32,000 nucleotides of DNA from Haloferax volcanii DS2. Its GTDB lineage: Archaea > Halobacteriota > Halobacteria > Halobacteriales > Haloferacaceae. Both the position numbers and the translations under genes were made by a program. The notes under the pieces were generated by a model. That model had not been told where the DNA came from, made no database searches, and worked only from the letters and a program-made list of their open reading frames with translations. Positions 11,092 through 26,871 of the stretch are shown one piece after another; the first letter of the stretch is position 1; each line of letters starts with the position of its first letter. The stretch covers positions 90,001 to 122,000 of the forward strand of contig NC_013966.1 of NCBI RefSeq assembly GCF_000025685.1, read 5' to 3'.

Positions 11092-11217
11092 CGGCAACTC
11101 CCACGAGTCGACGTGTCGCCGCTGAGATACGGGAGGACACCGGTTTTCCGTGGTCGAACCCGACCACATCGCGTGAGTTACTTTTAAGTAGCCTGGTAAA
11201 AATTCTACTTACGTACA

Positions 11218-13170
11218 ATGGTTAGCTTATCCCAAGTTGATACTGTGACCGTTCTCGGCGCAGGAAGCATGGGCCACGGTATCGCAGAGGTATCTGCTAT
11301 TGCGGGGTACGATGTCGTTCTCCGCGACATCGAAGACGAGTACGTCCAGAACGGATACGACCAGTTGGAGTGGAGCGTCAAGAAGCTCGCCGAGAAGGGC
11401 CAGCTAAGCGACTCTCCCGAGGAGATTCTCGCCCGGGTCGAGACGACGACTGACCTCGAAGCTGCCGTTTCAGGTGCTGATATCGTCATCGAGGCGGCCC
11501 CGGAGAACCTCGGCCTGAAGCGGGACATCTTCTCGGAAGTCGAGGCGTTCGCGTCCGACGAGACCATCATCGCCACGAACACGTCGAGTCTTCGAGTCAG
11601 CGACATCGCCGCAGAGGTGGCCCTCCCCAGGCGGTGCTGTGGTCTCCACTTCTTCAACCCACCAGTAAAGATGGACCTTGTAGAGGTCGTTTATGGCGAG
11701 AAAACTACCGAGGACGTCGCGGAAACGGCCTATGAGTTCGCGGAATCACTCGACAAGACGCCGATCTACGTCCAAAAGGACGTTCCCGAATTCGTGGTGA
11801 ACAACGTGTTGACGCCGTTCATGGAAGAGGCAGGGTGGATGCTCGACGACGGCACCGCCACCGTGGAGAGCGTCGACGCCACGATGGTGTACGAACGGGG
11901 GTATCCAATGGGACCGTGTGAACTCAATGACTTCGGCGGCCTCGACATCCTCGCCCATACTCGCGACCAGTGGGACCGGCCCATTCCCGAGTCCATCAGA
12001 GACCGGGTCGAAGCCGACAAACTCGGCCGGAAGACCGGCGCGGGTTTCTACGACTACGATGACGGCCCCGGCGTCGACTACGGTCCCGAAGACCTCGCCG
12101 GCGTTGACTCGCTCCGAATCGAGGCACGGATGATAAACGCCGCAGCCAAACTCGTCGGCGACGGTGTCGCCACACCCGAAGATATCGATATCGGGATGCG
12201 TCTCGGCGGTGGGTTACCCGAAGGGACCTGCAGAACGGCCGACAAGATCGGGCTAGATGCGGTCCTCGAGAAACTCGAATCGCTCTATTCGGAAACCGGT
12301 GCTGACCGCTATGCGCCCGCAGATTACCTTGTGGAACTGGTTGAAGACGGAAATACTGGCGAAGCCGCCGGACAGGGTTTTTATGACTACTCCGGAGACG
12401 GCCCGTACTTCTATCTGGACCATGAGATCGATGACCGCGGTGTCCTCTCGGTGACCCTCGACCGACAGGAGCGTCTGAACGCGTTCAACGACGACATGTT
12501 CGCCGAAGTCGAACGGTTGATGACAACCGCCGACGTCGACGACGTGCGATGTGTCGTATTCGAGGGTGCCGGCGGCAAAGCCTTCTCCTCCGGTGCCGAC
12601 GTGACGGCCTTCACCACGACTGACCCCATCTCTATGATGGACATCGACCAGACGATGGTCGCCGTCGCCGAGTTCGAACGACCCACCATCGCAAAGATCG
12701 ACGGTTACTGCTTCGGTGCCGGTCTCGAACTCTCCCTCGCGTGTGACTTCCGCGTTGCGTCAGATGGCTCGTCGTTCGCGTCACCGGAAATCGACTTAGG
12801 CCTCATCCCAGGTGGCGGCGGTACTCAGCGTCTCGTTCGGACAGTCGGAGAACCACTCGCCAAGGAGATGATATTCCGTGGCACTCACCTCAGTGCCTCC
12901 GAGGCCGAGACGGCTGACTTACTCAACGAGGCTGTCCCGGAAGATGAACTCGATGACACTATTGAGTCGTACGTCTCCGACTTCGTACGCGGTCCTCCGA
13001 CCGCTCTCAAAGTCGCCAAGCGTATCATTGATAAGGGACAGGACGTCGACCTGGAATCCGGCCTCTCGCTCGAGAAACAGGGATTCAGCCTCCTGATCAC
13101 TACCGACGACATGGTGGAGGGCGTCACAGCGTTCCGCGAAGATCGCGAACCAGAGTTCACTGGTGAGTGA
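11218..13170 (+). CDS. fused 3-hydroxyacyl-CoA dehydrogenase / enoyl-CoA hydratase (FadB-like)
   Basis: 650 aa. N-terminal Rossmann fold (VTVLGAGSMGHGIAEVSAIAGYDVVLRDI). C-terminal crotonase fold (FSSGADVTAF...GYCFGAGLELSLACDFRVA). Confidence 0.9.
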   Translation: MVSLSQVDTVTVLGAGSMGHGIAEVSAIAGYDVVLRDIEDEYVQNGYDQLEWSVKKLAEKGQLSDSPEEILARVETTTDLEAAVSGADIVIEAAPENLGLKRDIFSEVEAFASDETIIATNTSSLRVSDIAAEVALPRRCCGLHFFNPPVKMDLVEVVYGEKTTEDVAETAYEFAESLDKTPIYVQKDVPEFVVNNVLTPFMEEAGWMLDDGTATVESVDATMVYERGYPMGPCELNDFGGLDILAHTRDQWDRPIPESIRDRVEADKLGRKTGAGFYDYDDGPGVDYGPEDLAGVDSLRIEARMINAAAKLVGDGVATPEDIDIGMRLGGGLPEGTCRTADKIGLDAVLEKLESLYSETGADRYAPADYLVELVEDGNTGEAAGQGFYDYSGDGPYFYLDHEIDDRGVLSVTLDRQERLNAFNDDMFAEVERLMTTADVDDVRCVVFEGAGGKAFSSGADVTAFTTTDPISMMDIDQTMVAVAEFERPTIAKIDGYCFGAGLELSLACDFRVASDGSSFASPEIDLGLIPGGGGTQRLVRTVGEPLAKEMIFRGTHLSASEAETADLLNEAVPEDELDDTIESYVSDFVRGPPTALKVAKRIIDKGQDVDLESGLSLEKQGFSLLITTDDMVEGVTAFREDREPEFTGE

Positions 13171-13225
13171 AGTGATGACATTGAACAAAGAAATATATTG
13201 GAATAGCGTATTAACATAACCAGCC

Positions 13226-14860
13226 ATGATGGATTACGAACTCACACTGACGAAAACGCTCCGTCGGGCGGTGGACCAGTTCGGCGACAAGGAGATTGTC
13301 ACTAAGCTTGACGATGGGGGGTACCACCGCTACACGTACAGCGATGCGTACGAACGGATTTGCCAGTTGGCGCACGCGCTGGACGACTACGGCCTCGACC
13401 ACGGCGACCGGGTATCGGTAATGGCTACAAACCACTACCGACACTACGAGTTGTACTACGGTCCCTCCTGTAGTGGTCGGTCCATCCACATGACGAACCA
13501 TCGGCTTCCGGACGAACACCTCACGACAATTATCGATGAGGCCGAAGACCGCGTACTGTTCTTCGACGAGGCTTTCCTCGACACCGTCGAGCGGATCGCA
13601 CCGGAACTCGAAACCGTCGAACAGTACGTCGTCCTCGACGAAAGCGTCCCCGAGACAGACCTCGATTCGGTCACCGACTACGAGTCGTTCATCGCAGGAT
13701 ACGAGACGGAGTACGAATGGCCGGACCTCGACGAGGACACCGAGTGTGGTATCTGCTACACGTCGGGGACGACTGGGCTCCCGAAGGGTGCTTCCTACTC
13801 CCACCGCGGACTGTTCCTCCTGAGCATGAACTACGGGGCGAAAGACACCTTCGGCATCACCGAGAAAGACGTCATTCTCCCCGTCGTACCGATGTTCCAC
13901 GTTAACGGCTGGTGTCTACCCTACAGCGGTACGTTCTACGGTTCTTCGTTCGTTCTTCCGGGGAAACACACTGATCTGGAGGCTGTCGAGGCGATGATCC
14001 GTGAACAGAACGTAACTGTCGCTGCTGCCGTGCCGACGATCTGGACCGACATGGCGAACTACATCGACGAGCATCCCGAAGCCGACATCAGTACCCTCGA
14101 TCGGATTCTGACCGGTGGAAGCTCACCGCCGCCAGCCGTCATGCGGCGGTTCTACGAGGAGTTCGACGCACCGATAATCCAGGGCTATGGGATGACGGAA
14201 GCGTCGCCACACCTCGTCAATACGCTGCTTACCGAAAAAGTTCGAAACCTCCCCGAGGAAAAGCAGTACGAACTCCAGACCAAGCCGGGGCTCCCCGTTC
14301 CGGGCGCGGAGATCCGACTCCGGAACGAGAAGGGCGAACCCGTCGAGCACGACGGCGAATCTAACGGTGAAATCCAGGTCCGGAGTCCGTGGGTCATCGA
14401 CGAATACTTCGCTCGCCCCGAAGCCACTGCGGAGTCTTTCACCGACGACGGGTGGTTCAAGACCGGCGACATTGGGACCATCGACGAATATGGCTATCTC
14501 GACGTGGTAGACCGCGTCGACGACATCATCAAGAGCGGCGGTGAATGGATCTCCTCGGTCGAACTCGAGAACGAAGTCGTAGCCCACGAGAAAGTCGTCG
14601 AGGCCGTCGTCATCGGTGTTGAGCACGACCGTTGGCAGGAACGCCCCGTCGTGTACGTCAACACCAACGACGACGTGAGCGAGGGCGAACTCAAGAACCA
14701 CCTTCTCGACCGCTTCCCGAAGTGGTGGTTGCCTGATGAGTTCATCTTCACCGACGACATCCCCCAGACCAGTACTGGGAAGTACGATAAGAAGATACTC
14801 CGCTCGTTGTTCCGCGACCGGTACGGATCGCTACCGCTCGAAAACGAAACAGCGCAGTAA
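13226..14860 (+). CDS. AMP-forming acyl-CoA ligase (fatty/aromatic acid-CoA ligase)
   Basis: 544 aa with the AMP-binding signature YTSGTTGLPKGASYSHRGL, plus GYGMTE and TGDIG...GYLDVVDRVDDIIKSGGEWIS motifs. Confidence 0.9.
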   Translation: MMDYELTLTKTLRRAVDQFGDKEIVTKLDDGGYHRYTYSDAYERICQLAHALDDYGLDHGDRVSVMATNHYRHYELYYGPSCSGRSIHMTNHRLPDEHLTTIIDEAEDRVLFFDEAFLDTVERIAPELETVEQYVVLDESVPETDLDSVTDYESFIAGYETEYEWPDLDEDTECGICYTSGTTGLPKGASYSHRGLFLLSMNYGAKDTFGITEKDVILPVVPMFHVNGWCLPYSGTFYGSSFVLPGKHTDLEAVEAMIREQNVTVAAAVPTIWTDMANYIDEHPEADISTLDRILTGGSSPPPAVMRRFYEEFDAPIIQGYGMTEASPHLVNTLLTEKVRNLPEEKQYELQTKPGLPVPGAEIRLRNEKGEPVEHDGESNGEIQVRSPWVIDEYFARPEATAESFTDDGWFKTGDIGTIDEYGYLDVVDRVDDIIKSGGEWISSVELENEVVAHEKVVEAVVIGVEHDRWQERPVVYVNTNDDVSEGELKNHLLDRFPKWWLPDEFIFTDDIPQTSTGKYDKKILRSLFRDRYGSLPLENETAQ

Positions 14861-15123
14861 TCCGAGTCATCGACCCGGTAGTGCAGACGAGCAGTCACAC
14901 TTTCGTGCGGTTGTTGCGTTTAGTCTCCATGCAGTCGTTCGAATGCTCGGTCCTCTGCGGAACTCTTTCAGTCGATGATTTATTGTGATGGGTATGGCGG
15001 TGGGGGAATACGGTCATCGAACCTGTCGGGAAGGGTCCGACGTGAGTGACACCGAGTCAAACACACCCAGTGGAATCAGTCGTGTCAGTCGGTTTTGGTG
15101 TGGCGTCTTTACGAACGTAGATT

Positions 15124-15390
15124 CTACAGATAATCAAGGCAGAGTGCCTCGTGGTCGTGTCGCGTCGGCGTTCGCGGCGCGCCCACTCGCTTGCGCTCCG
15201 TGCGCTCGAACGACCGCCACTCGGGGCCGCGGTTGATGCCGTGGCCGTCGATGATGAGACCACAGGACTCACACCGTCGTTCACCAGCGTCTGTAATGAC
15301 CTGGCCGCCACACTCCGGACAGGAGGCGTTTCCACAGGATTTCCCGCACGATTCGTCGAACTGTCGCTCGTAGACATCTCGTGTCGCCAT
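15124..15390 (-). pseudogene. tfb: transcription initiation factor TFB, N-terminal zinc-ribbon/B-reader fragment only
   Basis: From ATG at 15390: MATRDVYERQFDESCGKSCGNASCPECGGQVITDAGERRCESCGLIIDGHGINRGPEWRSFERTERKRVGAPRTPTRHD. It then diverges into HEALCLDYL*. The two cyclin-fold core domains of a normal ~320-aa TFB are missing. The track start at 15519 runs through motif F and is unlikely. Confidence 0.7.
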
Positions 15391-15417
15391 CTCGAACACC
15401 GCGCGACGCAATTTAGT

Positions 15418-15447
15418 GCGCCCCGCACCCGTCAGGGGCTGAAAAAA
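15418..15447 (-). repeat. oligo-T + GC-hairpin motif, instance F (degenerate)
   Basis: Minus strand reads TTTTTT-CA-GCCCC-TGACGGGTGC-GGGGC-GC. It keeps the T-run and the GGGTGCG box. The hairpin end lies ~28 nt upstream of the TFB-fragment ATG. Confidence 0.5.
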
Positions 15448-15532
15448 CGCCGTTGCCGTCTCAAACAAGCAGGCTTCAGTTGGGGAGTCATTAAATGATT
15501 GAACCACAACACCAAACATGCTATAGTATTCG

Positions 15533-16039
15533 TTAGAAGTAATTACTCACTTTTGGGACCGAAAGCTGGTCAAGAGCGGCGTCTATCGCTGTCGTTAACT
15601 CGTCAAGTGAGTCGAAAAACCGGTTGCTCAACGCTGCTTGAAGCTGTCTCCAGCACTCCTCAACCGGGTTTAGTTCCGGCGAGTATGATGGAAGCGTCAC
15701 GAACGCGAGGTCGTCACGGGCCGCCAGGTCCGTGACGGCCGACGCTTGAAAGTACGGCGCACCATCTAGCACCACGAGCAAGTCATCTTCAAATTCTTTA
15801 CATAGTGCTAAAATGAAATGTTTCGCGTGTTCAGCGGTGACGTACTCCTCGAATCGTGAAAAGAAGCGATCACCGTCCTCGGTGATCGCGCCCAGCAGAC
15901 ACGTCCAGTCGCGTTGACCAGAGAGTTTGACCGAGGGCCGCGTGCCACGTGGAAACCACGCGGCACGCGGCTCAACTTGCACGGATTTCTTGGTTTGGTC
16001 GATACAGACTACGGTGGCGTCCATCTTCCGCCGCTTTTT
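15533..16039 (-). CDS. IS630-family transposase, DDE catalytic part (orfB, reached by -1 shift at the A7 run)
   Basis: The -1 frame continues ...KKRRKMDATVVCIDQTKK...LLVVLDGAPYFQA...LPSYSPELNPVEECWRQLQ (DDE_3 type). The joined product, ...YEELKKKRRKMDATV..., would be ~335 aa, normal for IS630 transposases. The track ORF 15533-16210 carries a non-coding 5' extension. Confidence 0.75.
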   Translation of the reverse strand, partial: KKRRKMDATVVCIDQTKKSVQVEPRAAWFPRGTRPSVKLSGQRDWTCLLGAITEDGDRFFSRFEEYVTAEHAKHFILALCKEFEDDLLVVLDGAPYFQASAVTDLAARDDLAFVTLPSYSPELNPVEECWRQLQAALSNRFFDSLDELTTAIDAALDQLSVPKVSNYF

Positions 16040-16533
16040 TTGAGTTCTTCGTAGAACGCTTCTTGCTCGTCTTCGTCGGCTTCGGCGGCTGTACGGCGTG
16101 GTTTCTGATATCTCAATCCCGCTTCTTTCAGCAACCGCCGACAACTCGGGATTGAATACTCGACGCCGTATGTTTCCTCGAGAAATTCTTGGGCAAGCGC
16201 CGGCGTCCACGCCGGCGCGTCGAGCCCAACTTCTTCAGGAGGTTCGTGGACGGTCTCTTGAAATTCGCTTTGCTGTGTTTCTGAAAGCTTTCGCTTCCTT
16301 CCGGTTCGTTTATCGTCAGAAACGGCTTGCTCAAGCGACTCGTCGGTGTCGAGTCGCTTGAGCCAGCTGTAGATCGTCCGGCGTTGAACACCGTACCACT
16401 CGGCTAGCTCGGTCTGCGTGACACCGTTCTTGTACGCGATAGCCGCTAAGAGCCGTTGTGTCGGCTTCTTTCCGTCCACGTTGTCGAGAGTGTCTTGTAA
16501 TTCCTCGACGGAAATCTCGTCGAGATGGTTCAC
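16009..16533 (-). CDS. IS630-family transposase, N-terminal HTH part (orfA)
   Basis: 174 aa with HTH motifs (GVTQTELAEWYGVQRRTIYSWLKR...). It ends just after an A7 run (T7 on the + strand, 16035-16041). Confidence 0.85.
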   Translation of the reverse strand: MNHLDEISVEELQDTLDNVDGKKPTQRLLAAIAYKNGVTQTELAEWYGVQRRTIYSWLKRLDTDESLEQAVSDDKRTGRKRKLSETQQSEFQETVHEPPEEVGLDAPAWTPALAQEFLEETYGVEYSIPSCRRLLKEAGLRYQKPRRTAAEADEDEQEAFYEELKKSGGRWTPP

Positions 16534-16622
16534 TATCTCTTACAAGAGTCTCTGAGTAAAAAGTTCTAACGATTACTATAGTAGGTGGATTATCGTTGCA
16601 GGCTCGACGTGTCACACAAGAC

Positions 16623-16830: not shown

Positions 16831-17016
16831 ATGAGTAGCTCACCATGGACTGCGAACTTTGCGACTGAAAAAAGCAAATGTGCAGCCGATGTCCAACGCC
16901 TCCTCGAGAAGTACCCGCAACCGGTCGTCTACGAAGTCATGAGTGAACTGCTCCGACAAGAGATGCGCGAGCAGTTTGCTGGTGCGTACGCTGCGTCCCA
17001 GCAGTCCGACGACTAA
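16831..17016 (+). CDS. hypothetical small protein (61 aa)
   Basis: Only an ORF with acidic, helical-looking composition (…DVQRLLEKYPQPVVYEVMSELLRQEMREQF…). It is convergent with the SWIM gene. No recognisable domain. Confidence 0.3.
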   Translation: MSSSPWTANFATEKSKCAADVQRLLEKYPQPVVYEVMSELLRQEMREQFAGAYAASQQSDD

Positions 17017-17049: not shown

Positions 17050-17457
17050 CTACTCAGACAGCTTACGCCGCCCAGCGTCGATACAGTTCCAACAAGGAAG
17101 AGCTTCAGAGAGCTGTTCACACTCGCAGGGCAGGTCTGCTGTGTCATCATCCCCGCACGATGTTGACCCACCATCTGCGACGACGCGCATCTTGACGGCG
17201 AGTTCGAGTATTCGTGGGCGAATCGCGACCGCAACTCGATGCTTACACGGACCGTTGCCGCTCGCATCAGCGGGACACGAACACGACTCGGGCACGCCGT
17301 CCTGAATTCGAACGCGGTACTCGTGCACGTCCGGATCGGTATAGCTCTCGTTGCGTACACGGACATCGCCATCAAGGAGTTCGAACGCGAACGCCTCGTA
17401 CTGCGCTCGCTTGAGAACACGCGTAGGTGGATCGAACTCTGGTAGTACAGGAATCAT
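17050..17457 (-). CDS. SWIM zinc-finger protein
   Basis: CxC...CxH SWIM signature (SCSCPADASGNGPCKHRVAV) plus a C-terminal Cys cluster (CECEQLSEALPCWNC). Start set at ATG 17457 (MIPVLPEF...). The track start at 17496 lies inside hairpin A. Confidence 0.75.
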   Translation of the reverse strand: MIPVLPEFDPPTRVLKRAQYEAFAFELLDGDVRVRNESYTDPDVHEYRVRIQDGVPESCSCPADASGNGPCKHRVAVAIRPRILELAVKMRVVADGGSTSCGDDDTADLPCECEQLSEALPCWNCIDAGRRKLSE

Positions 17458-17472
17458 GGTAGCCAGCGCGCA

Positions 17473-17503
17473 ATGCGCGCACCCCTTCGGGCGCATAGAA
17501 AAA
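17473..17503 (-). repeat. oligo-T + GC-hairpin motif, instance A
   Basis: Minus strand reads TTTTT-CTAT-GCGCCC-GAAG-GGGTGCGC. It lies between the stop at 17526 and the start at 17457. Confidence 0.7.
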
Positions 17504-17525
17504 CTGCGCCGGACGGCAGATGGGG

Positions 17526-18455
17526 TTAGACCGCGTCGAGTGTCGACAGAATCTCTTCGGCCGTCCCACTAATCCGACCCAGTCGCTCTTGCAGCACGTC
17601 TGTCTCGTCGCCCTGCCACGCCGCGAGATAGAACGCCGACCCACTCGCATCCAAGCCGAGGTATCGACCAACGACGTACGCAACGGCCTCCGCTTCAACC
17701 TCGCGTTTCGCCCGCTCGGTCGCGTCAGTAATATCGAAATGCAGAATCGCATGCGCGTACTCGTGGATGATCGTCGATGCGAGGTCTGCGCGATTCGACC
17801 GATCCTTCACTTCCACGAGTGGGGTGAGATCCTGGACACTCCGCGACTGGCAGACGCCCTTCGCCTCTCCATGTCGCCACTCATCGGGATCGACAATGCG
17901 GATGGTCACACCGAGGTCCGACGCGATGTTAGTGAGATCCTCAACGAGTGTGTCAGACTCACCGGTCGCCGCCGTATCCAACTCTGGAAGTGGTTCGCCC
18001 TCGGTCTGCGAAATGTCGAAGACTGGTGCAGGCTTGAAGCCCACGAGGCCCTCCGACCACTCTTCGGGCGGCGTCTCGTCGTACTCACACTCGCTGTTTT
18101 CGTGATAGCTCGGTGCGTTCCCACACTCGGGGCATTGGGTCGTGATGATCGGCACCCAAATCCAAATTGCCGACTCGCCTTCCTCGACGTATCGGTCGAA
18201 CTCTGCTTGCCACGTCCGGTAACCAGCAACCTTCGTCGCCTCAGGACACTGGAGGGTGATGAGGAGTGTGTTGCGGTGAGAGTAGTCGTGGAACTCGCTC
18301 TGGACGTCCAACCACGCTTGGAACTGCTCGCTCGCCCGAGCGTCGTCGACGTCGGCAGCGAGGTCTGCAAGCCATTGTTCGATCGTGCGATGCATCTCAT
18401 CGTGTCGCGTGTCGGTCTCGTCGAACGACACCGACGGAGAACTCGTTGTTGCCAT
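17526..18455 (-). CDS. ArdC-like protein: N-terminal ssDNA-binding (ArdC-N/DUF1738-like) domain plus C-terminal HExxH metallopeptidase
   Basis: From ATG 18455: MATTSSPSVSFDETD...YSHRNTLLITLQCPEATKVAGYRTWQAEFDRYVEEGESAIWIWVP (ArdC-N-like), an inserted CPECG...ECEYD zinc ribbon, and C-terminal ...IIHEYAHAILH...EVEAEAVAYVV (zincin). The track's 70-codon 5' extension overlaps the upstream gene and hairpin B. Confidence 0.7.
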   Translation of the reverse strand: MATTSSPSVSFDETDTRHDEMHRTIEQWLADLAADVDDARASEQFQAWLDVQSEFHDYSHRNTLLITLQCPEATKVAGYRTWQAEFDRYVEEGESAIWIWVPIITTQCPECGNAPSYHENSECEYDETPPEEWSEGLVGFKPAPVFDISQTEGEPLPELDTAATGESDTLVEDLTNIASDLGVTIRIVDPDEWRHGEAKGVCQSRSVQDLTPLVEVKDRSNRADLASTIIHEYAHAILHFDITDATERAKREVEAEAVAYVVGRYLGLDASGSAFYLAAWQGDETDVLQERLGRISGTAEEILSTLDAV

Positions 18456-18490
18456 TGGTTTCAGTTCTGATGCGTCCCTCCAGGACGCGC

Positions 18491-18516
18491 CGCACCCCTC
18501 TGGGGCGCACAAAAAA
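18491..18516 (-). repeat. oligo-T + GC-hairpin motif, instance B
   Basis: Minus strand reads TTTTTT-GT-GCGCCCC-AGA-GGGGTGCG. It lies between the stop at 18529 and the start at 18455. Confidence 0.7.
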
Positions 18517-18528
18517 CAGCGGGGCGAA

Positions 18529-18867
18529 CTACTGGTCGGTGTCCTCGCACTCGAGACTGTGAAGGTACTGTCGACACTCGCCGAACAGGCCGCTCGCAGT
18601 CGCCTCACCGGTCGTGAGGTGTCGAACCCACTCAATCGCCCAGCAGTACGCAGGATTGGACTCACCTGCCCCGTGGATGTACCACCAGCGAGCGGCTTTA
18701 AGCACGACGAGCGGATTCGTCGGCGGTTGTTCGCTCAGAAGAGACCACGTAATCGACTCGATTTCATCGGGAATATCGGCTCGGGTGAACTCCGAACGAT
18801 GCACGAGGTCGAGGTCGACTGGAATCTCGTCGATCGAGACGTCTGACTCTGTTTGTTGGTGACTCAT
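18529..18867 (-). CDS. hypothetical protein (112 aa)
   Basis: Acidic ORF, MSHQQTESDVSIDEIPVDLDLV...ARWWYIHGAGESNPAYCWAIEWV... The ATG at 18867 is preferred to the GTG at 18876. No recognisable domain. Confidence 0.6.
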   Translation of the reverse strand: MSHQQTESDVSIDEIPVDLDLVHRSEFTRADIPDEIESITWSLLSEQPPTNPLVVLKAARWWYIHGAGESNPAYCWAIEWVRHLTTGEATASGLFGECRQYLHSLECEDTDQ

Positions 18868-18900
18868 GGAGATCACGTCACACGGACTGTGTCTTCAGCC

Positions 18901-18924
18901 CGCACCCATCACGGGCGCAAAAAA
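18901..18924 (-). repeat. oligo-T + GC-hairpin motif, instance C
   Basis: Minus strand reads TTTTTT-GCGCCC-GTGAT-GGGTGCG. It lies between the stop at 18954 and the start at 18867. Confidence 0.7.
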
Positions 18925-18953
18925 TCTCGATGTCGCGCTAGTCCCGACCGACG

Positions 18954-19349
18954 CTATGCGAGGTGCGACACCTCCTCGGGTTCGGGTTCGTCAGCGAACT
19001 CGTTGCGCTTGACTGGCGTCCAGTCTTCAGTCGTGGTTGGTGCCCACCAATCGACGTGATAGTCACCGGGCGCACCGAGAATCTTAACGCGTGCTTCGTC
19101 GTCGGGAAGCGGCCGGCGAAGTTTCTCGTCGACGTGGAGATTCCACGTCGTCGTCGCGTCGAATGTGATGATGACCGCCTCATCGTACCCCCGCGACTCA
19201 GGTGACTCACGGCACGTCACGCTGGTATTGCACTCAGTGCAGAACACCCCCTCGAAGGGAATGTGCGTGAACGCTTCCGTGCCACACACCGGACACCACA
19301 GAAATTCGAACAGCGCCTCGTCGTGACGGAACACGCGCTCGAGACTCAT
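18954..19349 (-). CDS. zinc-ribbon protein of unknown function (131 aa)
   Basis: CPVCG...(13 residues)...CTEC zinc ribbon near the N-terminus, with an acidic C-terminal tail. Confidence 0.65.
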   Translation of the reverse strand: MSLERVFRHDEALFEFLWCPVCGTEAFTHIPFEGVFCTECNTSVTCRESPESRGYDEAVIITFDATTTWNLHVDEKLRRPLPDDEARVKILGAPGDYHVDWWAPTTTEDWTPVKRNEFADEPEPEEVSHLA

Positions 19350-19440
19350 CGATCATTCACCACCGTTGCAGGTGTCACGAGCGGGTGGTGTGGGAAGTGA
19401 GACAACTCGACTGCCAGCGTTGGAATTTGCATCTGTTACT

Positions 19441-19470
19441 GCGCCTCCGCCCCTTTGGGCGGCGCAAAAA
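19441..19470 (-). repeat. oligo-T + GC-hairpin motif, instance D
   Basis: Minus strand reads TTTTT-GCGCCGCCC-AAAG-GGGCGGAGGCGC. It lies between the stop at 19523 and the next starts (19432 micro-ORF, 19349). Confidence 0.65.
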
Positions 19471-19522
19471 CAACACCAAGCGCACCTCCTTCCTACTTGG
19501 TCGCTCCGTCTGTATCCACTGC

Positions 19523-19765
19523 TCACTCCGCGAGAATGTCGTCGTGTGAGGTCGTTCGAACGCGCTCGACAAACGCATGTGCAGCGGCGGCAGTCGAAAA
19601 CACCGACGCATCATAGCCAACAGAGCCACCGAACACAGTCCACTCGTCGGTCACCACACCACCGGACAGCGGCGTGTACTCGACACGATAGGTGTCAGCC
19701 ACGTCGTCGATGACGATTCGAACAGCAATACCACGATCAGGAAGTGTCTCTCTCAAGAATACCAT
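19523..19765 (-). CDS. hypothetical protein (80 aa)
   Basis: Acidic ORF starting 18 nt after the stop of the upstream gene. No recognisable domain. Confidence 0.55.
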   Translation of the reverse strand: MVFLRETLPDRGIAVRIVIDDVADTYRVEYTPLSGGVVTDEWTVFGGSVGYDASVFSTAAAAHAFVERVRTTSHDDILAE

Positions 19766-19783
19766 TGGCCACAGCCTCCAAAG

Positions 19784-20275
19784 TCAGTAATGGACATCAG
19801 CGGGAACGATCCACAGATGATCGTTCGACCCGACGAGCTGCTCAAGTCGCTCGCGATGCCGAACGCCGTCAGCGAACTCGTCGTAGAGGTACACCGCCGG
19901 CCCACGGTACGTCCCGAGATTGTGGCACGCATGCCTGACGAGGTCCTCATCGCGCATGATCGCCGCAGCGTCGAGGTCGTCAACGCCCTCTCGAACACGC
20001 TCGAGATTCCGCTCGAACTCGCGTGTCGTCGCCTGCCACCCGCTCTCGAGGAGTTCCTGGCCATCCTCCGAGCCAACGGGTGCTGCAACTGGGAGGTCAC
20101 CCCACCGGGCGCTGCCGGCGACCGTTGTTGAGTCGTCATCAAACGTCACATAGTAGTCGAACACCGCCTCGGCGTGCGGTGCAGCACCCACCAGTTGGTC
20201 GAATACGTCAGCGGCCCGCGAGAGGGCTTGGTCTGTTGTCGATGCAGTCACGAGTGCGTAGATTACTTGGTGCAT
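19784..20275 (-). CDS. hypothetical protein (163 aa), first gene of the cassette
   Basis: Frame verified codon by codon by hand from 19784 to 20275. MHQVIYALVTAST...FDYYVTFDDDSTTVAGSARWGDLP...LWIVPADVHY. I believe similar proteins occur widely as uncharacterised proteins, but I cannot name a family. Confidence 0.7.
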   Translation of the reverse strand: MHQVIYALVTASTTDQALSRAADVFDQLVGAAPHAEAVFDYYVTFDDDSTTVAGSARWGDLPVAAPVGSEDGQELLESGWQATTREFERNLERVREGVDDLDAAAIMRDEDLVRHACHNLGTYRGPAVYLYDEFADGVRHRERLEQLVGSNDHLWIVPADVHY

Positions 20276-20729: not shown

Positions 20730-22127
20730 CAGTACCTCACAAAGCATCCTCGCCTAGCTGTCTCTGAAGCCTGAATTCTGTGGCCGAGCGGTTGCATTGG
20801 CGGTCTCGACGACAGAATCATGGACGGATCGGCGGAGAGCCGTCGCTGTCGGCGGCGGCTGCCGCCGACGCGACAGCGTCGCCACTCCCACTGTTGGCTA
20901 GCCCGGTCGGGAGTTACCGGTGGAACCGGTCGTCTGGTGGTCGGTTCGCGGGGACGGCCCGACGCACCGCGAGGGCCGTCCACGCTGCTCGACGGACCAT
21001 ATTGATGAACTCCTTGAACGACCACTCCCAGAGGCGACGCCCCCCACGGCGGGGCGTCGCCACGTACTCCCAGTGCAAATACCGCCAGACGTTCTGTAAC
21101 AGCAGGCTCACCACGACGTACAACAGCCGTACGACCGGATTTTGTGTCGAGGTCGTCGCGATACTTTGCTCGGAGAGTCGATAGCTTGCCTCGATACCGA
21201 AGCGTTTCGCGTAGTGGTATCGAGCGTCCCGTGGTGAGTCGATGAACGGCGCGTCAGCGGCGTAGCCGTGACGCGCCACGCCATGTTCGTCGTACCGTCC
21301 GTTCTGGTAGGTACAGTCGATGTAGACGGGAAACTCGACGGTCCAGCTGTGACCGTCGAGTTTCGCTGTCAGACTGTGCTGAATCACGCGACTCCACCCT
21401 TCTGAGAGTTCTCGCTTGATCGTCCGTCCCCAGCGGACGATCGGCATGACGTAGGCGTGGTTGTGCGCCTGAAGCAGCGTCAAACACTTGCTGTCGTAGA
21501 ATTCGCGGTCAAGATAGACGGCCTTGACACCGAGGTCAAGGCCGTCGAGAATACCGAGGAACTCTGCGAGGACACTGCTGGCGGTGTCGCCGTCTTCGAG
21601 ACGGCGCACCGCCAGCGTGTAGCGTTTGTTCTTCACGCGTGCGTACAGTGTCGCGTACGCGTGAAACGCGGTGGTTCCACGCTTCGCTTGTGAGTGATAC
21701 AGGCCGTCTGTATCGTCTTCGTCGCCGTAGTAGGGCCGCAGGTGGAGGTCTGCGCAGACCTCCACCTGCTGGGGAAGGACGTCGAGAACGTCTTTCTGGA
21801 GGAGCGTGTTCCCGATTTGTTCGAGCGTCTCGAGGTCGAACTTGGTGCGGAGATGGTAGAGAACCGAGTTTTCGTGAGGTGCATCTTCGCTTCTCTTGCA
21901 GAGTGTAGAGACCGAGGTCCCGTCGGCGCAGGCGCCGACGAGGACCTCGTAGATGTCTTCAGCATCGAGTTCAGCGTTTTCAGCGAGTGAGAGAGCAACT
22001 TCCTCGTCAAGAGAGTTGACGAGGAAGTTAAGGAGCTGGTCCTCGTGGATTTCATCGTCTGTTTGCTGGTTGTTGGACACATCTTCAGCAAGCAGACCTT
22101 CTAACTAAACGGCTTTGTGAGGTACTG
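20730..22127 (-). mobile_element. ISH3-family insertion sequence (1398 bp) with 5-bp target duplication AGACT
   Basis: 16-bp perfect terminal inverted repeats: CAGTACCTCACAAAGC at 20730-20745 and its reverse complement at 22112-22127. AGACT is present at 20725-20729 and at 22128-22132. Removing the IS and one AGACT restores an intact 136-codon ORF. Confidence 0.9.
20914..22080 (-). CDS. ISH3-family transposase
   Basis: 388 aa with a GTG start, MSNNQQTDDEIHEDQLLNFLV...YLDREFYDS...FGIEASYRL. Typical haloarchaeal ISH3-group DDE transposase. Confidence 0.9.
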   Translation of the reverse strand: MSNNQQTDDEIHEDQLLNFLVNSLDEEVALSLAENAELDAEDIYEVLVGACADGTSVSTLCKRSEDAPHENSVLYHLRTKFDLETLEQIGNTLLQKDVLDVLPQQVEVCADLHLRPYYGDEDDTDGLYHSQAKRGTTAFHAYATLYARVKNKRYTLAVRRLEDGDTASSVLAEFLGILDGLDLGVKAVYLDREFYDSKCLTLLQAHNHAYVMPIVRWGRTIKRELSEGWSRVIQHSLTAKLDGHSWTVEFPVYIDCTYQNGRYDEHGVARHGYAADAPFIDSPRDARYHYAKRFGIEASYRLSEQSIATTSTQNPVVRLLYVVVSLLLQNVWRYLHWEYVATPRRGGRRLWEWSFKEFINMVRRAAWTALAVRRAVPANRPPDDRFHR

Positions 22128-22700: not shown

Positions 22701-23347
22701 TCAGTTTTTGAACAGTACGATGAAGACGACACCAACGATCATCAGTTCTAAGGCCATAGTGCCTGTGTCAGAACTGAGCGCGATGTCGCCAACGTGCGGT
22801 AAGTAGTCGAGCATTTTGATGAGTACCCCCTGGGATGGCCGTCGGCCGAAGTAGTGGTAATACTTCTGCTGAGTTGCTCAGTCGTTGTACAGCCATTGAT
22901 CAGACTGCCGCTTGTTTTGCATACGTGGGTCCCGCTGGTATCGCTCAATATTTCTCGCGATGACCACACGGTCGATGATATCAACGTCAAGCGTCTGGGC
23001 GAGGTCCGTACTGCGGTGTTCGACAGACGGAACACCGCCAGACAGGCTCACCAGCCCACGCTGCAGGCGGACTATCCTCGTGTGAGTCGAACCGATGCGG
23101 CGTCTGTTCACCACTCGACTGACAGCAGAGCAGTTGCCGTGTTGGTGAGGTAGATGTCGGCTGTGATGGCGAGGCGTCGACAGACGTTCGTCGAAGCGCA
23201 ATCGCCGGGACAACCCACGTCTTCGGGTCCGAGAGCAACTTCTCACGCCGGGAGTCCTCAGTAATCTGCGTCCCAGCAGCGTTGTACCACCGGGAGCACC
23301 AAGAAGGTTTCAACAGGTTCAAGAAAATCGTAACCGCGAATCTCCGG
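22701..23347 (-). pseudogene. probable decayed gene (in-frame TGA plus apparent frameshifts), product unknown, hydrophobic C-terminus
   Basis: The frame ending at 22701 reads ...DVDIIDRVVIARNIERYQRDPRMQNKRQSDQWLYND*ATQQKYYHYFGRRPSQGVLIKMLDYLPHVGDIALSSDTGTMALELMIVGVVFIVLFKN*, with the TGA at 22878-22880. Protein-like stretches upstream sit in the other two frames (…RRLAITADIYLTNTATALLSVEW*; …SWCSRWYNAAGTQITEDSRREKLLSDPKTWVVPAIA…). Confidence 0.3.
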
Positions 23348-23815
23348 CTACGCTGATGCGGGCGACGAAGACCCCTCATCACGCGGCAGACCGAACTCAA
23401 CCTCAATCCGGACCGTATCGTAGGGGACGTACGGCTTCTTTGCGCGACCATCCTTCTCGAAGTGGACGATATCGTACTCAGCTAGTAGGTGTAGATCGTC
23501 GTGCACATCGTGGACGTCGCGCTCCAAGCGACTAGCCAGTGCGCGGATACTCTCGGGCGGGCGTTCCATCACCTCTTCGAGGAGTTCCATCCGCCGGTCG
23601 GTTAGCAGTTGGCGGAGCCGCGTCCGATCCTCGAAGTTGACGACATGCGGTACCTCTTCACCCTGCTCCCACCGTTCGGCCCGCTCAAGAGCCGCCGCCT
23701 GCGCCTGTTCTGCTGGGAGCGACGTGATACGGAGAGTCGAAGGGTACTCGACCTCGTCCGGGTCGGGAGTGAATTCGTCGTGCGTCGGTTCAGTGTCAGT
23801 TGGTTCGTTGCTCAT
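23348..23815 (-). CDS. HTH DNA-binding protein (winged-helix; antitoxin-like partner)
   Basis: 155 aa: acidic N-terminus, then ...LRQLLTDRRMELLEEVMERPPESIRALASRLERDVHDVHDDLHLLAEYDIVHFEKDGRAKKP... (wHTH). It overlaps the upstream gene by 20 nt. Confidence 0.75.
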   Translation of the reverse strand: MSNEPTDTEPTHDEFTPDPDEVEYPSTLRITSLPAEQAQAAALERAERWEQGEEVPHVVNFEDRTRLRQLLTDRRMELLEEVMERPPESIRALASRLERDVHDVHDDLHLLAEYDIVHFEKDGRAKKPYVPYDTVRIEVEFGLPRDEGSSSPASA

Positions 23816-24104
23816 AGATCTCGTTCACCTCGGTTTGGAAATCGTTGACTAGGTCGGACAGCCCTGTGAACTCCAACTTCATGATGTCGCCCTCGGGTGT
23901 ATGTCGGTGGTGTCGACCAACATCCAAGTGGTACGGCGAGTTATCATACCGCAGGAGTGTGTCGCCGTCAGCGTCCATGTACTGAAAGCTGTATTTCAGT
24001 CCCTGCGGGAAGTCTTCGCTTGAGGGGACCTGCCACGCGACCATCTCATACCGACTTCCATCTGGCTTCTCGTTTTCGTCCCGGTACACAACCCTTGCAG
24101 GCAT
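23796..24104 (-). CDS. small protein of the DUF6516-like type (putative toxin partner of the HTH protein)
   Basis: 102 aa: ...YEMVAWQVPSSEDFPQGLKYSFQYMDADGDTLLRYDNSPYHLDVGRHHRHTPEG... Family name is recalled from memory for this small-protein-plus-HTH pair in haloarchaea and is unverified. Confidence 0.6.
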   Translation of the reverse strand: MPARVVYRDENEKPDGSRYEMVAWQVPSSEDFPQGLKYSFQYMDADGDTLLRYDNSPYHLDVGRHHRHTPEGDIMKLEFTGLSDLVNDFQTEVNEIYEQRTN

Positions 24105-24232
24105 CGTTTTCCTATGTTGTGTTACAACCCCAACAATGTTAAAGCTTAGCGTTTGGAACGTCCCCCAACAGACAGATTCCGTACACTCAGCACCGCTTTG
24201 AGCTTTTTTAGCGATAGGACTTCGTCCGTACC

Positions 24233-25627
24233 CATCTGTGTTCGGTTAAGCTCTAACCTCCGTTCTGAATGCTTCAGCTACTCGTTCGCTGAGTAAGAGG
24301 CGTGATTTCTCTGGTTGGCGTGCGTTGCAAAACATGAGCTCAGCCAAGTTCGGCGGTGGATGTCCGAACGACTGGGCTAGATCTTCGAGGATGAGCTGGG
24401 CGAAAGACCGGAAGGTCTTCGCCCAGCGTTCTCGTGGAAACATCGTTTCTGGGTGCATCCTCTGAAAGACGCCAAGCAAGGCTCTGCTGACCGTGAGCGT
24501 CAGCAGAGCCGCTACCACCAGCAACTCCACGATTGCTGGATTGCTTGTCTGGAACTTCTCCAGCCCGTACATCGATTTCAGCTCACGGAACAGCACTTCT
24601 ACTTCCCACCGTACACCGTACAACGCTGCGACTTGTTCCGGCGTGAACTCATCTGGGAGGTTCGTGATGTACAGGTGATAGTCGTCGGTGTCCTCGTTGC
24701 GGACACCGACGACGCGGAACTCTATCGTCGCACTCGAATGCTTCTCACCGTACGGACGCCGTTTGAAGCTCACCTCGGCGGTTACATCGATAATCTCGCG
24801 TGTAAGACCACCGAGAACATCCTGAAGACGACGGTCTGGTAAGGAAATGGCGCGCCCGCGCCATTTCCGACGTGCCTCTGTGATTCGTGGGTTTGCGTTC
24901 GTCTTCAGTCGACTCAAAAAGAAGCCGCCGTTCTCCTCGATGAGTGCGAACCGACGATAGCTGTAGAAGCCGAGATCGAACAGCAACAACCGCCCTCGCA
25001 GCCAGTTCCCCGTGCGGAACTGGCTGCTCTCGTGGCTTCGTTCGTCGGTGAGTTCGAACCGCTCGATCGTCTGTTTCGTGAGGTTGTGGACGAGATGAAG
25101 TTTCGCGCCTGACTGGTCAGGATGCGTCGCTGGAAACTCGCTCAGGAGCCGATGCAACCGGAAAACGGTTGCATCGGCAATCATCACATCGCGGAACTGC
25201 TGGAGCTGCGGGGCGAGTGTGTGTGGCACTGCGACCTCCTCAAGAGCATGTTCGAGGAGGTCGCTGAGTAACTGTCCGAGTGCGGGTGTGAACCGATCGT
25301 AGAAGCTGGAACGGGAGAGCGTCTGATTGGTCGCTGCGGCGTAGGCACGTTGAAACCCCGCGATCGTGCGAGATTCGCCGCCGACGGCGAATCCCAAGAT
25401 GAGCGTCCAAACGAGGGCAGTAACATCGATTCGACGGTGGCGTTGGACGACATCGCGCTCGCGCGCGATGTCTTCGATAAGCTCTCCTGGAAAGAGCGAA
25501 GTGAGCCGCCGTCGAATAAGGTCTGGGGAGAGTTCCTTCAGCACAACCTCTCCCCACGCGTTCTACACCGATAACTTCGTCAACAGAGCGCAGTCTCTCG
25601 ATTTTGCTTCTTAACCGAACACGGATG
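24233..25627 (-). mobile_element. IS4-family (ISH8-like) insertion sequence, 1395 bp, 9-bp target duplication GTCCGTACC
   Basis: 18-bp terminal inverted repeats: CATCTGTGTTCGGTTAAG (24233-24250) versus the reverse complement of 25610-25627 (CATCCGTGTTCGGTTAAG), one mismatch. GTCCGTACC is present at 24224-24232 and 25628-25636. Confidence 0.85.
24246..25544 (-). CDS. IS4-family transposase
   Basis: 432 aa, MLKELSPDLIRRRLTSLFPGELIEDIARERDVVQRHRRIDV...VMIADATVFRL...LLLFDLGFYSY...YGVRWEVEVLFRELKS (DDE with YREK-like motif). Confidence 0.9.
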   Translation of the reverse strand: MLKELSPDLIRRRLTSLFPGELIEDIARERDVVQRHRRIDVTALVWTLILGFAVGGESRTIAGFQRAYAAATNQTLSRSSFYDRFTPALGQLLSDLLEHALEEVAVPHTLAPQLQQFRDVMIADATVFRLHRLLSEFPATHPDQSGAKLHLVHNLTKQTIERFELTDERSHESSQFRTGNWLRGRLLLFDLGFYSYRRFALIEENGGFFLSRLKTNANPRITEARRKWRGRAISLPDRRLQDVLGGLTREIIDVTAEVSFKRRPYGEKHSSATIEFRVVGVRNEDTDDYHLYITNLPDEFTPEQVAALYGVRWEVEVLFRELKSMYGLEKFQTSNPAIVELLVVAALLTLTVSRALLGVFQRMHPETMFPRERWAKTFRSFAQLILEDLAQSFGHPPPNLAELMFCNARQPEKSRLLLSERVAEAFRTEVRA

Positions 25628-25650: not shown

Positions 25651-26586
25651 GCTCTGGTGAATCACTAGACGGCGTCGGTTTCGACCGGTAGAATTTGGAA
25701 GATGAAGCGGGAAACCGTCGATGCTCTATGTCGAAAATCTCCCGCTTCACGAAGAAGGCGGTCACGTTGGCTAAAAATGTTGTTGGTGACCGAGGCGAAG
25801 TCGCCGCCCCCGAAGGGGGTGGCGGCTTCGCCGACTACGCTCTCGTATCGCTGCACTGTCTGCGGATTTACCTCGATGAGTCGTACCGCAACGCACTGGA
25901 TCTGCTGAGCGAAATGCCGCATATTCTCGCCGAGATCGGCCTCGAAGAGGGCGATCTCCCTGATCACTCGACACTAGTTAAGGCGTTTGATAGGTTTCAG
26001 ATGAAGGTCTGGCGAGTGCTGCTGCGCCTGTCGGCGCAGCTGCACGACCCCTCGGGTCACGCCGCCATCGATGCCACCTTTTTTGACCGCGAAAACGCTA
26101 GCAAGCACTACTGCCGCCGCACGAATTACCACGTTCAGACACTCAAAGCGACGGCTCTCGTCGATACGCAAACGCAAGCTGTTCTCGACGTTCATTGTAC
26201 GACCGAGAAGACCCACGACACACAACTCGGCTGGCAGGTCGCCTGCCGCAACGCAGGCGACCTGCACAGCCTCGCCGCTGACAAAGGCTACGACTGGATG
26301 CAGTTACGCGAAAAACTACGCGAGGAAGGCGTGAGACCGCTGATTAAACATCGTATCTTCCGGCCCATCGACCACGCGCATAACGCGCGGGTCGATGGGC
26401 CTCGATACCGCCAGAGATCGATGTGTGAGACTGTCTTCTCGTCGATCAAGCGCACGCACGGCGACGCCGTGCGAGCGCGAACGTGGTACCGTGAATTTCG
26501 TGAACTCGTTTTGAAATGTGTCGTTCACAATATCAAGCGTGCCGCAACATAGCCAAATCAACCGCTGTATGGCGATTCACCAGAGC
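25651..26586 (+). mobile_element. IS5-family insertion sequence, 936 bp, 10-bp target duplication CTTTGAACGG
   Basis: 13-bp perfect terminal inverted repeats: GCTCTGGTGAATC at 25651-25663 and its reverse complement at 26574-26586. CTTTGAACGG is present at 25641-25650 and 26587-26596. Confidence 0.85.
25728..26552 (+). CDS. IS5-family transposase
   Basis: From ATG 25728: MSKISRFTKKAVTLAKNVV...AIDATFFDRENASKHY...LAADKGYDW...SMCETVFSSIKRTHGD (DDE). The track start at 25695 is a short 5' extension. Confidence 0.85.
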   Translation: MSKISRFTKKAVTLAKNVVGDRGEVAAPEGGGGFADYALVSLHCLRIYLDESYRNALDLLSEMPHILAEIGLEEGDLPDHSTLVKAFDRFQMKVWRVLLRLSAQLHDPSGHAAIDATFFDRENASKHYCRRTNYHVQTLKATALVDTQTQAVLDVHCTTEKTHDTQLGWQVACRNAGDLHSLAADKGYDWMQLREKLREEGVRPLIKHRIFRPIDHAHNARVDGPRYRQRSMCETVFSSIKRTHGDAVRARTWYREFRELVLKCVVHNIKRAAT

Positions 26587-26871
26587 CTTTGAACGGTATT
26601 CAACGCCATCTCACGCGGTGCTTAACTCTCGTGTGGGAAAGTTCGTCTCAAGCCCGTTTTCAATCGCAGCAGGACGTGGCCGAATGCTACTTGCACCTCA
26701 CCAACGAGCGTCTTCGTTCAGTCGAAGTTCCGCGGCCGGGTCACGGGAGGGCGGCATACCGCGTCGTGGCTGTATCTTCCGATATAAACGTTCGTCCAGC
26801 GAGGTCACTCTGAAACCCGGCCGATGGCCAACAAACGTATATGTATTCTTAAACTAGCTGTGGGCAGCAAA

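Follow-up and report, generated by a model that had tools for sequence, protein, structure and literature searches.

A compacted, decayed copy of a plasmid backbone array in Haloferax volcanii DS2: an ArdC-like cassette that very probably stems from T4SS-encoding haloarchaeal plasmids

The 32,000-nucleotide stretch of Haloferax volcanii DS2 considered here (contig NC_013966.1, positions 90,001 to 122,000 of the forward strand; hereafter the window, in whose own numbering all its positions are given) carries at 17050-20275 a cassette of six genes, every one of them on the minus strand. In the order of transcription they encode a 163-residue DUF7995 protein (19784-20275), which is the first gene of the retained block; an 80-residue protein of the Haloferax lineage (19523-19765); a 131-residue DUF7567 protein with an N-terminal CxxC...CxxC zinc ribbon (18954-19349); a 112-residue DUF8013 protein (18529-18867); a 309-residue ArdC-like protein (17526-18455, with an ATG at 18455 that agrees with the starts of its homologues); and a SWIM zinc-finger protein (17050-17496 as a 148-residue open reading frame (ORF), or 17050-17457 and 135 residues from the Met at 17457, which is the annotated start of homologues). 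The cassette is very probably a compacted and decayed copy of a one-directional backbone array of the putatively conjugative Halobacteriales plasmids that encode a type IV secretion system (T4SS) and are related to pHdsl9-3, with its six genes intact and selected.

All six ORFs are full length and free of frameshifts and internal stops. An initial annotation of the window had listed these co-directional minus-strand frames, and each one is found where it had been placed, together with a 28-residue micro-ORF (19346-19432, minus strand) in the 173-nucleotide spacer between the 80-residue protein gene and the DUF7567 gene. The ratio of nonsynonymous to synonymous substitution rates (dN/dS), taken between the window copy and eight other Haloferax copies, is 0.04-0.08 for the ArdC-like gene, 0.04-0.14 for DUF7995, 0.04-0.17 for DUF7567, 0.06-0.23 for DUF8013, 0.10-0.30 for SWIM and 0.22-0.49 for the 80-residue protein gene; two overlapping opposite-strand shadow ORFs, which serve as controls, yield 0.7-2.2. 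The six retained genes have evolved under purifying selection. The micro-ORF, at 0.3-1.8, behaves like the controls, that is, like non-coding DNA; there are thus six genes rather than seven, and the micro-ORF, which had been counted among them, is probably no gene at all. Its amino acid identity among Haloferax copies is 61-96%, versus 94-99% for the neighbouring genes.

Four of the encoded proteins had been put down as unknown. Three of these now belong to Pfam DUF families, and the 80-residue protein stays without one, having no match in family searches. The DUF7567 protein matches PF24451 over its entire length (positions 1-131 of 131, 237 bits, E = 5.7e-71), and at least 95% of 60 homologues keep its cysteines C19, C22, C37 and C40. 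DUF7995 and DUF8013 are assigned through the precomputed labels PF25958 and PF26043 of homologues that are 88-98% identical.

The whole cassette recurs, at ~92% identity (megablast) and in the same gene order, on plasmids pBNX82-4 and pBNX82-1 of Haloferax alexandrinus, and most of it recurs at a similar identity on plasmids of H. gibbonsii and H. lucentense. A scan of reference genomes with DUF7995 as the anchor yields 237 loci, 80 of which were fetched with 10-kb flanks that limit the gene counts that follow. The surveyed loci (designated L001 onward) come from many haloarchaeal genera and include many named plasmids, some genomes contributing several copies. DUF7567 is present in 60 of the 80, DUF7568 in 55, DUF6166 and the MBSP1 family in 52 each, transcription factor B (TFB) in 48, the ArdC-like protein in 35, and DUF8013 and DUF6610 in 25 each; every array gene scored is represented in 25-60 of the 80 loci, and co-directional with DUF7995 in 98-100% of cases (100% for DUF7568, DUF7567, DUF6166, TFB, MBSP1, the ArdC-like protein and DUF8013). 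When the window proteins are used as tblastn queries against loci oriented by the anchor, the ArdC-like protein is found in 40 loci and DUF8013 in 30, again on the strand of DUF7995. The spacing is also constrained: in 28 of the 28 loci that hold both, DUF8013 is co-directional with the ArdC-like gene and ends 80-437 nucleotides upstream of its start, and DUF7567 lies downstream of DUF7995 and co-directional with it in 63 of the 82 loci with a DUF7995 gene, most commonly ~450 nucleotides from the DUF7995 end. The same order and orientation in dozens of loci of many genera speak against a grouping by chance; the neighbourhoods of the homologues are not housekeeping chromosomal contexts, and the ArdC-like gene co-occurs in a part of the surveyed loci.

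The full array comprises ~19 genes and is strictly one-directional. A complete example is found on the Halorientalis marina plasmid NZ_CP095489 (L085), where it reads TFB, a 289-residue MBSP1-family protein, two opposite-strand genes, hyp62, hyp126, DUF6735, hyp140, DUF7995, DUF7568, DUF7567, DUF6166, DUF7389, hyp73, hyp99, a second DUF6166, hyp51, hyp178, DUF6610, DUF8013 and the ArdC-like protein; an Orc1/Cdc6 gene lies past the array, and a VirB4/VirD4-type cluster lies elsewhere on the plasmid on the same strand. More generally, clusters of a VirB4-/VirD4-like 'transfer complex protein', a 'primase-like' protein and an 'ATP-binding protein' occur on the same plasmids and are co-directional with the array. 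The amino acid identity of the array core across families is 60-75%. In the Haloferax form the stretch from DUF6166 to DUF6610 is gone, the unrelated 80-residue protein gene stands in for DUF7568, and SWIM and TFB lie downstream; on pBNX82-4 the T4SS-like cluster, an RPA-like SSB gene, a gene for a 561-residue protein and the cassette all occupy one strand, with the SSB gene upstream.

These plasmids are not new as such. Ni et al. 2026 relate pHdsl9-3 to 132 further plasmids from seven families, and, by the account in their main text, Orc1/Cdc6, SSB, TFIIB, an ArdC-like protein, a T4SS cluster and uncharacterised proteins form a core present in >90% of the 133 (PMC13532300). That main text names the ArdC-like protein; the one-directional array and its DUF members are not described there (PMC13532300). 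pHdsl9-3 itself (CP183372.1) is recovered with the DUF7995 anchor as L075. The window shares conserved synteny with this backbone, the ArdC-like protein, TFB, MBSP1/DUF7995-type proteins and other, uncharacterised core families keeping the order and orientation that they have on the plasmids. The plasmid backbone is accordingly already described (2026); what is added here is that the array is defined, that DUF8013 and the ArdC-like protein form a constant pair, that Haloferax has a compacted variant, that the DUF7995 family reaches into phages, and that archaeal ArdC-like proteins carry a Cys/His insertion.

A few observations on individual loci may be set beside the survey. One genome may contain as many as four DUF7995 loci, which differ in subtype (L005, L007, L014 and L083 of Haloferax marisrubri), and a single Halorussus aquaticus plasmid holds four (L050, L057, L062 and L063); such multiplicity fits repeated integration or co-integration of plasmids of this kind. 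In Natrinema sp. J7-2 plasmid pJ7-1 (L004), a DUF1837 protein and a DEAD/DEAH helicase are encoded on the opposite strand inside the array (12912-16408), near DUF8013 and the ArdC-like gene. We take this pair to resemble a Hachiman-type defence pair; its insertion suggests that the array is a cargo hotspot. On pBNX82-4, a 7-deazaguanine-type cluster lies a few kilobases from the cassette (L001, 3868-10412) and contains two tRNA-guanine transglycosylase-like genes, one gene of the 6-pyruvoyl-tetrahydropterin synthase family and one BREX-type ATPase gene; the array of that plasmid has no DUF6610/DpdA4-like gene.

In the window, the array is reduced from ~19 genes to six, with the lineage-specific 80-residue protein gene as an addition, and what surrounds it is broken. 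The plasmid-derived segment extends from 15150 to at least 27150 with several breaks, as judged by alignment to the Haloferax plasmids of loci L001 and L002. Synteny with both begins at 15150, within a hair of a truncated TFB gene (15151-15390, minus strand) that encodes residues 1-80, the zinc ribbon, of a 308-residue TFB (96% identity to the L002 TFB by tblastn; PF08271, E = 4.2e-10). The otherwise contiguous synteny is then interrupted by an IS630 element of two overlapping ORFs (15521-16585, minus strand; HTH_33/HTH_32 and DDE_3), which sits between the TFB remnant and the genes of the SWIM protein and of a 61-residue hypothetical protein (16831-17016, plus strand), the latter being found in the same place, between SWIM and TFB, in pBNX82-4, pBNX82-1 and pHG1. 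At the other end, synteny with L002 stops at 20512 and restarts at 22994, skipping the gene for the 561-residue protein; in place of this gene, upstream of DUF7995, there is an ISH3 transposase (20914-22080, minus strand; NF033541, E = 1e-115).

Beyond it, synteny and Pfam matches identify what remains of the plasmid backbone (22994-27150), with the blocks 22994-24233 and 26587-27150 being 96-99.8% identical to L002. It consists of a fragment covering the C-terminal third of an MBSP1-like protein (22993-23292, minus strand; tblastn 37.6% identity, E = 3e-12); an HVO_A0114-family protein (23348-23815, minus strand; PF25212, E = 2.9e-34), whose gene overlaps that of a TumE toxin (23796-24104, minus strand; PF20126, E = 4.7e-18); two DDE_Tnp_1 transposases (24246-25544 and 25695-26552, by Pfam); and a PadR protein. 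To judge by its sequence, the first of these is probably a piece of another gene with a DUF7995 domain, a second one; the corresponding stretch of pBNX82-1 is unannotated, and the toxin-antitoxin-like TumE/HVO_A0114 pair is annotated there as 'DUF6516' and 'transcriptional regulator'. The four insertion sequence (IS) elements, IS630, ISH3 and the two DDE_Tnp_1 elements, thus fall within 12 kb, all of it inside the plasmid-derived segment.

When nine pBNX82-4 proteins (VirB4-like, VirD4-like, primase, Orc1/Cdc6, ParA, integrase, SSB-like, and the 561- and 166-residue proteins) are used as tblastn queries, none finds a match in the 32-kb window, which has no recombinase gene by tblastn either. 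Intact relatives carry the VirB4/VirD4-like cluster, Orc1/Cdc6 and the SSB-like gene; the window, lacking all three, therefore holds a fragment and not a member plasmid. Searches across the window for Rfam families and tRNA genes find none of either, so that there is no tRNA-type attachment site, and no deposited phage genome matches at the nucleotide level. The initial annotation had proposed a plasmid- or ICE-derived origin, had noted the adjacent TFB fragment and the IS-rich surroundings, and had allowed that the cassette may be a remnant. The flanking features are there, as the TFB fragment, IS630 and ISH3; the ~92% identical Haloferax plasmid copies and the place of the genes in a conserved T4SS-plasmid array sustain the proposed origin; and the truncation, the IS interruptions and the nine unmatched transfer, replication, partition and backbone proteins establish the remnant.

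The left flank consists of fatty-acid oxidation genes. A beta-oxidation cluster (9946-14860, plus strand) of acyl-CoA dehydrogenase, fused 3-hydroxyacyl-CoA dehydrogenase/enoyl-CoA hydratase and AMP-binding ligase genes adjoins the truncated TFB; fatty-acid genes also occur on the Halorientalis plasmid. The 488-kb megaplasmid pHG1 of H. gibbonsii holds a comparable relic, flanked on the right by the same neighbours, and decay is evident in sister Haloferax copies: pHG1 and L009 have no DUF7567 gene, or none that is annotated, and the ArdC-like gene is truncated in L005 and L007. The window cassette is a fossil of a smaller plasmid inside megaplasmid-type DNA.

The most informative member of the cassette is the ArdC-like protein. 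Its layout is that of the anti-restriction protein ArdC of IncW plasmid R388 and of pSa, a protein of ~300 residues with an N-terminal ArdC-N/DUF1738-type ssDNA-binding domain and a C-terminal HExxH zincin domain (PMC7213743), with a Cys/His cluster inserted in the N-terminal domain. The HEYAH sequence of the zincin domain is invariant in 18 orthologues, as are, in HExAH form, the motif together with downstream Glu/Ala residues (18 of 18). The assignment of the N-terminal domain to PF08401 holds for the family and is marginal for the window sequence alone: many orthologues carry the precomputed label, and one that is 69% identical (L085:18410-19339) scores 24.7 bits against Pfam ArdcN, above the cut-off. 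PHROG 7245, 'anti-restriction protein', matches across both domains (E = 3.2e-8). Comparison with R388 ArdC (sequence from NC_028464) brings out a series of common motifs, Y-x-x-x-N-x-x-L, VF[DN]xxQ, HExxH and E-x-x-AE...LGL...S-x-x-Y-x-x-W, the first two represented by Y-S-H-R-N-T-L-L and V-F-D-I-S-Q in the window protein versus YRGINVVML and VFNADQ in ArdC; VF[DN]xxQ is the 'squiggle' motif of ArdC (PMC7213743). Global pairwise alignment of the two proteins gives z ~4.2 relative to shuffled sequences, i.e. the similarity is remote. On the strength of these features we call the protein ArdC-like, though our confidence is moderate. Nine viral contigs contain relatives, at 24-37% identity.

The archaeal proteins differ from R388 ArdC in more than their host. 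Residues C107, C110, H117 and C122 (CPxC...H...C; window 18090-18140) are invariant in 18 of 18 haloarchaeal orthologues and lie at the position of the protruding beta3-beta4 hairpin of R388 ArdC; judged by its position in the sequence, the cluster may be a zinc-stabilised stand-in for that DNA-binding hairpin. The C-terminal domain, moreover, finds its best Pfam match in Peptidase_M78/IrrE (22.3 bits, at the cut-off of 22), many orthologues go by the NCBI name 'ImmA/IrrE family metallo-endopeptidase' or 'DUF955', and PHROG families of transcription regulators and metallo-proteases match alongside the anti-restriction family.

About its neighbours less can be said. Two of the six cassette proteins, DUF7995 and DUF8013, were modelled with AlphaFold2 (AF2), and only the DUF8013 model is usable: four helices at a pLDDT of 83. 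No metabolic fold matches it in PDB or BFVD, in keeping with the earlier supposition that the cassette has no housekeeping role, and there is no functional lead. DUF8013 also has no Pfam helix-turn-helix (HTH) match, no repressor match in PDB or BFVD, and no relatives in the viral contigs of IMG/VR.

DUF7995 is the most widely conserved cassette member, with homologues 60-98% identical across haloarchaeal genera; H2, an FDY motif and the C-terminal VPADVH are near-invariant. A profile search reaches 600 clusters of distant relatives (at 50% identity), non-acidic sequences among them. Eighteen IMG/VR contigs (L089-L106) encode relatives at 26-34% identity that retain the N-terminal MH and the C-terminal VPADVH; the GC content of all but one of these contigs is low (0.30-0.39), and the neighbours are small genes. 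Two contigs also encode a large terminase (one of them with a Cas4-like exonuclease in addition), and a third encodes an RNA ligase. The DUF7995 family extends into tailed phages. Ten divergent relatives yield nothing significant against Pfam, the viral relatives nothing against PHROGs; weak matches of the window DUF7995 protein to TY-Chap3 and DUF7118 (E 0.04-0.08) were dismissed as noise. Foldseek with the DUF7995 model returns only noise (best E 0.79), from which no conclusion is drawn.

DUF7995 also matches the central part of the MBSP1 model NF051898 (E = 3.6e-13; 49.7 bits versus a family cut-off of 320). MBSP1 proteins are longer, at 289-298 residues, the N-terminus extending ~90 residues beyond that of DUF7995, and the plasmid homologue has a weak zinc-ribbon match in this extra part. 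A true member of the MBSP1 family stands in the same plasmid array: the 289-residue protein of the Halorientalis marina plasmid (L085:7648-8517, 402 bits), encoded directly after TFB. What NCBIfam calls 'biosurfactant protein 1' is thus a core plasmid protein. The name stems from a screen in E. coli of a saline-soil metagenomic clone (PMC6987170). Biosurfactant activity was considered as an explanation of DUF7995 and rejected, the label having come from a heterologous clone screen; we regard it as telling little of what the protein does natively, and for genome annotation it is probably misleading.

The SWIM protein scores 29.2 bits against PF04434 (cut-off 19.6; E = 6.5e-7), with the CxC...CxH signature in SCSCPADASGNGPCKH. 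Its homologues, found in 22 of 84 anchor-oriented loci, vary in array position and never lie on the opposite strand. A SWIM-like CxC...CxH motif was also spotted by eye, without family-search confirmation, in a small protein of an IMG/VR contig (L104, 4452-4850). The 80-residue protein finds tblastn matches in Haloferax loci only (10 of 84), and its gene occupies the place that DUF7568 has in other genera; that it might be a diverged DUF7568 was considered and rejected, there being zero similarity. In the spacer between its gene and DUF7567 (19440-19480, minus strand), a T-run precedes a GC-rich imperfect hairpin, GCGCCGCCC-AAAG-GGGCGGAGGCGC, which may be a terminator or a regulatory element dividing the block into two transcription units. 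A repeat search in the cassette returned short chance-grade matches and nothing else. Beyond one weak SWIM-domain match, a PADLOC scan of the cassette proteins gives nothing, and the four proteins listed as unknown have no match in PHROGs.

What might such an array do? Array origin and a role in plasmid establishment, taken together, form a reading that we hold with somewhat better than even confidence; that the array is the plasmid's establishment module is, as a proposition of its own, tentative and by our reckoning stands at or just under an even chance. It is proposed by analogy, on four grounds: the ArdC-like protein has ArdC motifs, an SSB-like gene runs in the same direction, fuller arrays include a DNA-modification gene, and there is a parallel in R388, in whose establishment region ssb and ardC are co-directional (PMC7213743); for R388/pSa ArdC as for the archaeal proteins, the carrier is a T4SS plasmid that has an ssb-type gene nearby on the same strand. 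The N-terminal domain of the ArdC-like protein would bind incoming single-stranded (ss) plasmid DNA and shield it from host nucleases or restriction. The target of its zincin domain may be a host factor, and DUF8013 is its putative regulator or partner. Where the array is full, ssDNA would be coated by the RPA-like SSB, whose gene is co-directional, and the DpdA4-like transglycosylase would modify DNA, DUF6610 having been equated with DpdA4, the 7-deazaguanine DNA transglycosylase of haloviruses (bioRxiv 10.1101/2023.04.13.536721). DUF7995, DUF7567 and SWIM are specific to mobile elements and may have further roles, in anti-defence or in the handling of DNA. The window relic would no longer be mobile, and any function left to it would be exerted in trans.

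Several findings pull the other way. The window ArdC-like protein scores 19.1 bits against Pfam ArdcN, below the cut-off of 22.6; its hhalign match to R388 ArdC is weak (E = 0.014) and confined to the C-terminal region (ArdC residues 192-262); and neither phmmer nor an 18-sequence profile of the ArdC-like protein recovers ArdC, or anything else that is relevant, from the PDB sequences. Foldseek with the DUF8013 model yields zero matches with E <1 in PDB and BFVD, and the DUF7995 model, built from a 25-sequence alignment, is too poor to use (pLDDT 52). The array DUFs match no known anti-defence family in PADLOC or PHROGs, the ArdC-like protein being all that the window retains in this line. The dN/dS comparisons are with copies that may sit in active plasmids and say nothing firm on expression of the relic. 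Finally, no relaxase is typed on these plasmids and no oriT is known for them that would fix an order of entry, archaeal relaxases, or whatever carries ssDNA to the pilus, being unknown according to a 2025 review (PMC12282955); and the array is highly conserved, as a core, and does not vary as an island would, which suits a core role in transfer or DNA processing equally well.

The last two points mark the difference from the bacterial leading-region islands analysed by Samuel et al. 2024 (PMC11541004). There is a likeness: on conjugation-type plasmids, small and for the most part uncharacterised genes follow one another in a single direction, with ArdC-type, SSB-type and DNA-modification genes among them, and, as pJ7-1 suggests for the archaeal array, both are hotspots for cargo. 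The bacterial islands are variable, however, and their Frpo-type ssDNA promoters are inapplicable to archaeal transcription; the archaeal array is headed by a plasmid TFB instead. The most far-reaching version of the establishment reading would make the whole TFB-to-ArdC array the archaeal counterpart of a leading region: it would be the first ssDNA to enter, the plasmid TFB would act as its switch, DUF7995, DUF7567, DUF8013 and SWIM would be new families of anti-defence or ssDNA-handling proteins, and megaplasmid relics would aid related plasmids in trans. This we consider rather unlikely as it stands; were it true, it would provide the first sequence-level evidence for ssDNA transfer by haloarchaeal T4SS plasmids.

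The main rival, plausible if on the whole unlikely, moves the array from the recipient to the donor: the ArdC-like protein, DUF8013 and the small proteins would prepare ssDNA and pilot it to the T4SS, replacing the relaxosome. It would account for plasmids that are typed MPF_T without a relaxase (and hence 'non-mobilizable') in a domain of life from which no relaxase is known (PMC12282955), and for an array strictly co-directional with the VirB4/VirD4/primase cluster. The strong conservation across families is what one expects of machinery and not of genes caught in an arms race; to the extent that the main text of the plasmid study sets it out, the ArdC-like protein and neighbouring DUFs are core in >90% of the plasmids (PMC13532300). 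The RP4 TraC1 primase, which moves with the T-strand, shares, besides, the N-terminal domain of ArdC (PMC7213743). Yet R388 ArdC works in recipient cells rather than in the donor (PMC7213743); none of the six proteins shows, in family searches, a domain of nuclease or relaxase type (HUH, Rep, TOPRIM); and purifying selection persists in megaplasmid relics that have no T4SS, which is harder to reconcile with a role purely in transfer.

A distinctly less probable alternative is that the cassette is inert here: that it is the fossil of an integrated plasmid whose genes look intact only because integration or recombination was recent, and that it confers no benefit on the host. The truncated segment with its four IS elements, the loss of every backbone function that was sought and the progressive decay of sister Haloferax copies are all of a piece with inertness, and dN/dS between copies cannot date a loss of function. 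Against this stand six full-length ORFs without a single frameshift or internal stop, divergence from the other Haloferax copies that is sizeable at synonymous sites (dS 0.1-0.4) with dN low, and the retention in H. gibbonsii pHG1 of the same relic layout and the same right-hand neighbours.

The remaining alternative, an ImmA/IrrE-type switch in which a repressor, possibly DUF8013 or some other small protein of the array, would be cut by the HExxH protein so as to turn on transfer, replication or excision, is suggested by the M78-like C-terminal domain, the PHROG and NCBI labels already mentioned, and a small gene that is always directly upstream, just as immR sits directly upstream of immA in ICEBs1, and is nevertheless very improbable, since the ArdC-like protein has an N-terminal ArdC-N-type domain with ArdC motifs that ImmA and IrrE lack, and the DUF8013 model, confident as it is, shows neither an HTH nor a repressor fold.

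The window copy in itself is an ordinary relic; its value lies in the plasmid family behind it and in the testable candidates for the handling of archaeal conjugative DNA to which it leads. The wider question is how archaeal conjugative DNA is processed, delivered and established; the 2025 review knows of a single euryarchaeal plasmid with demonstrated conjugation (PMC12282955). The array supplies a short list of candidate genes (those of the ArdC-like protein, DUF8013, DUF7995, DUF7567 and SWIM) for Haloferax, which is genetically tractable, and whose megaplasmids harbour selected relics of T4SS plasmids.

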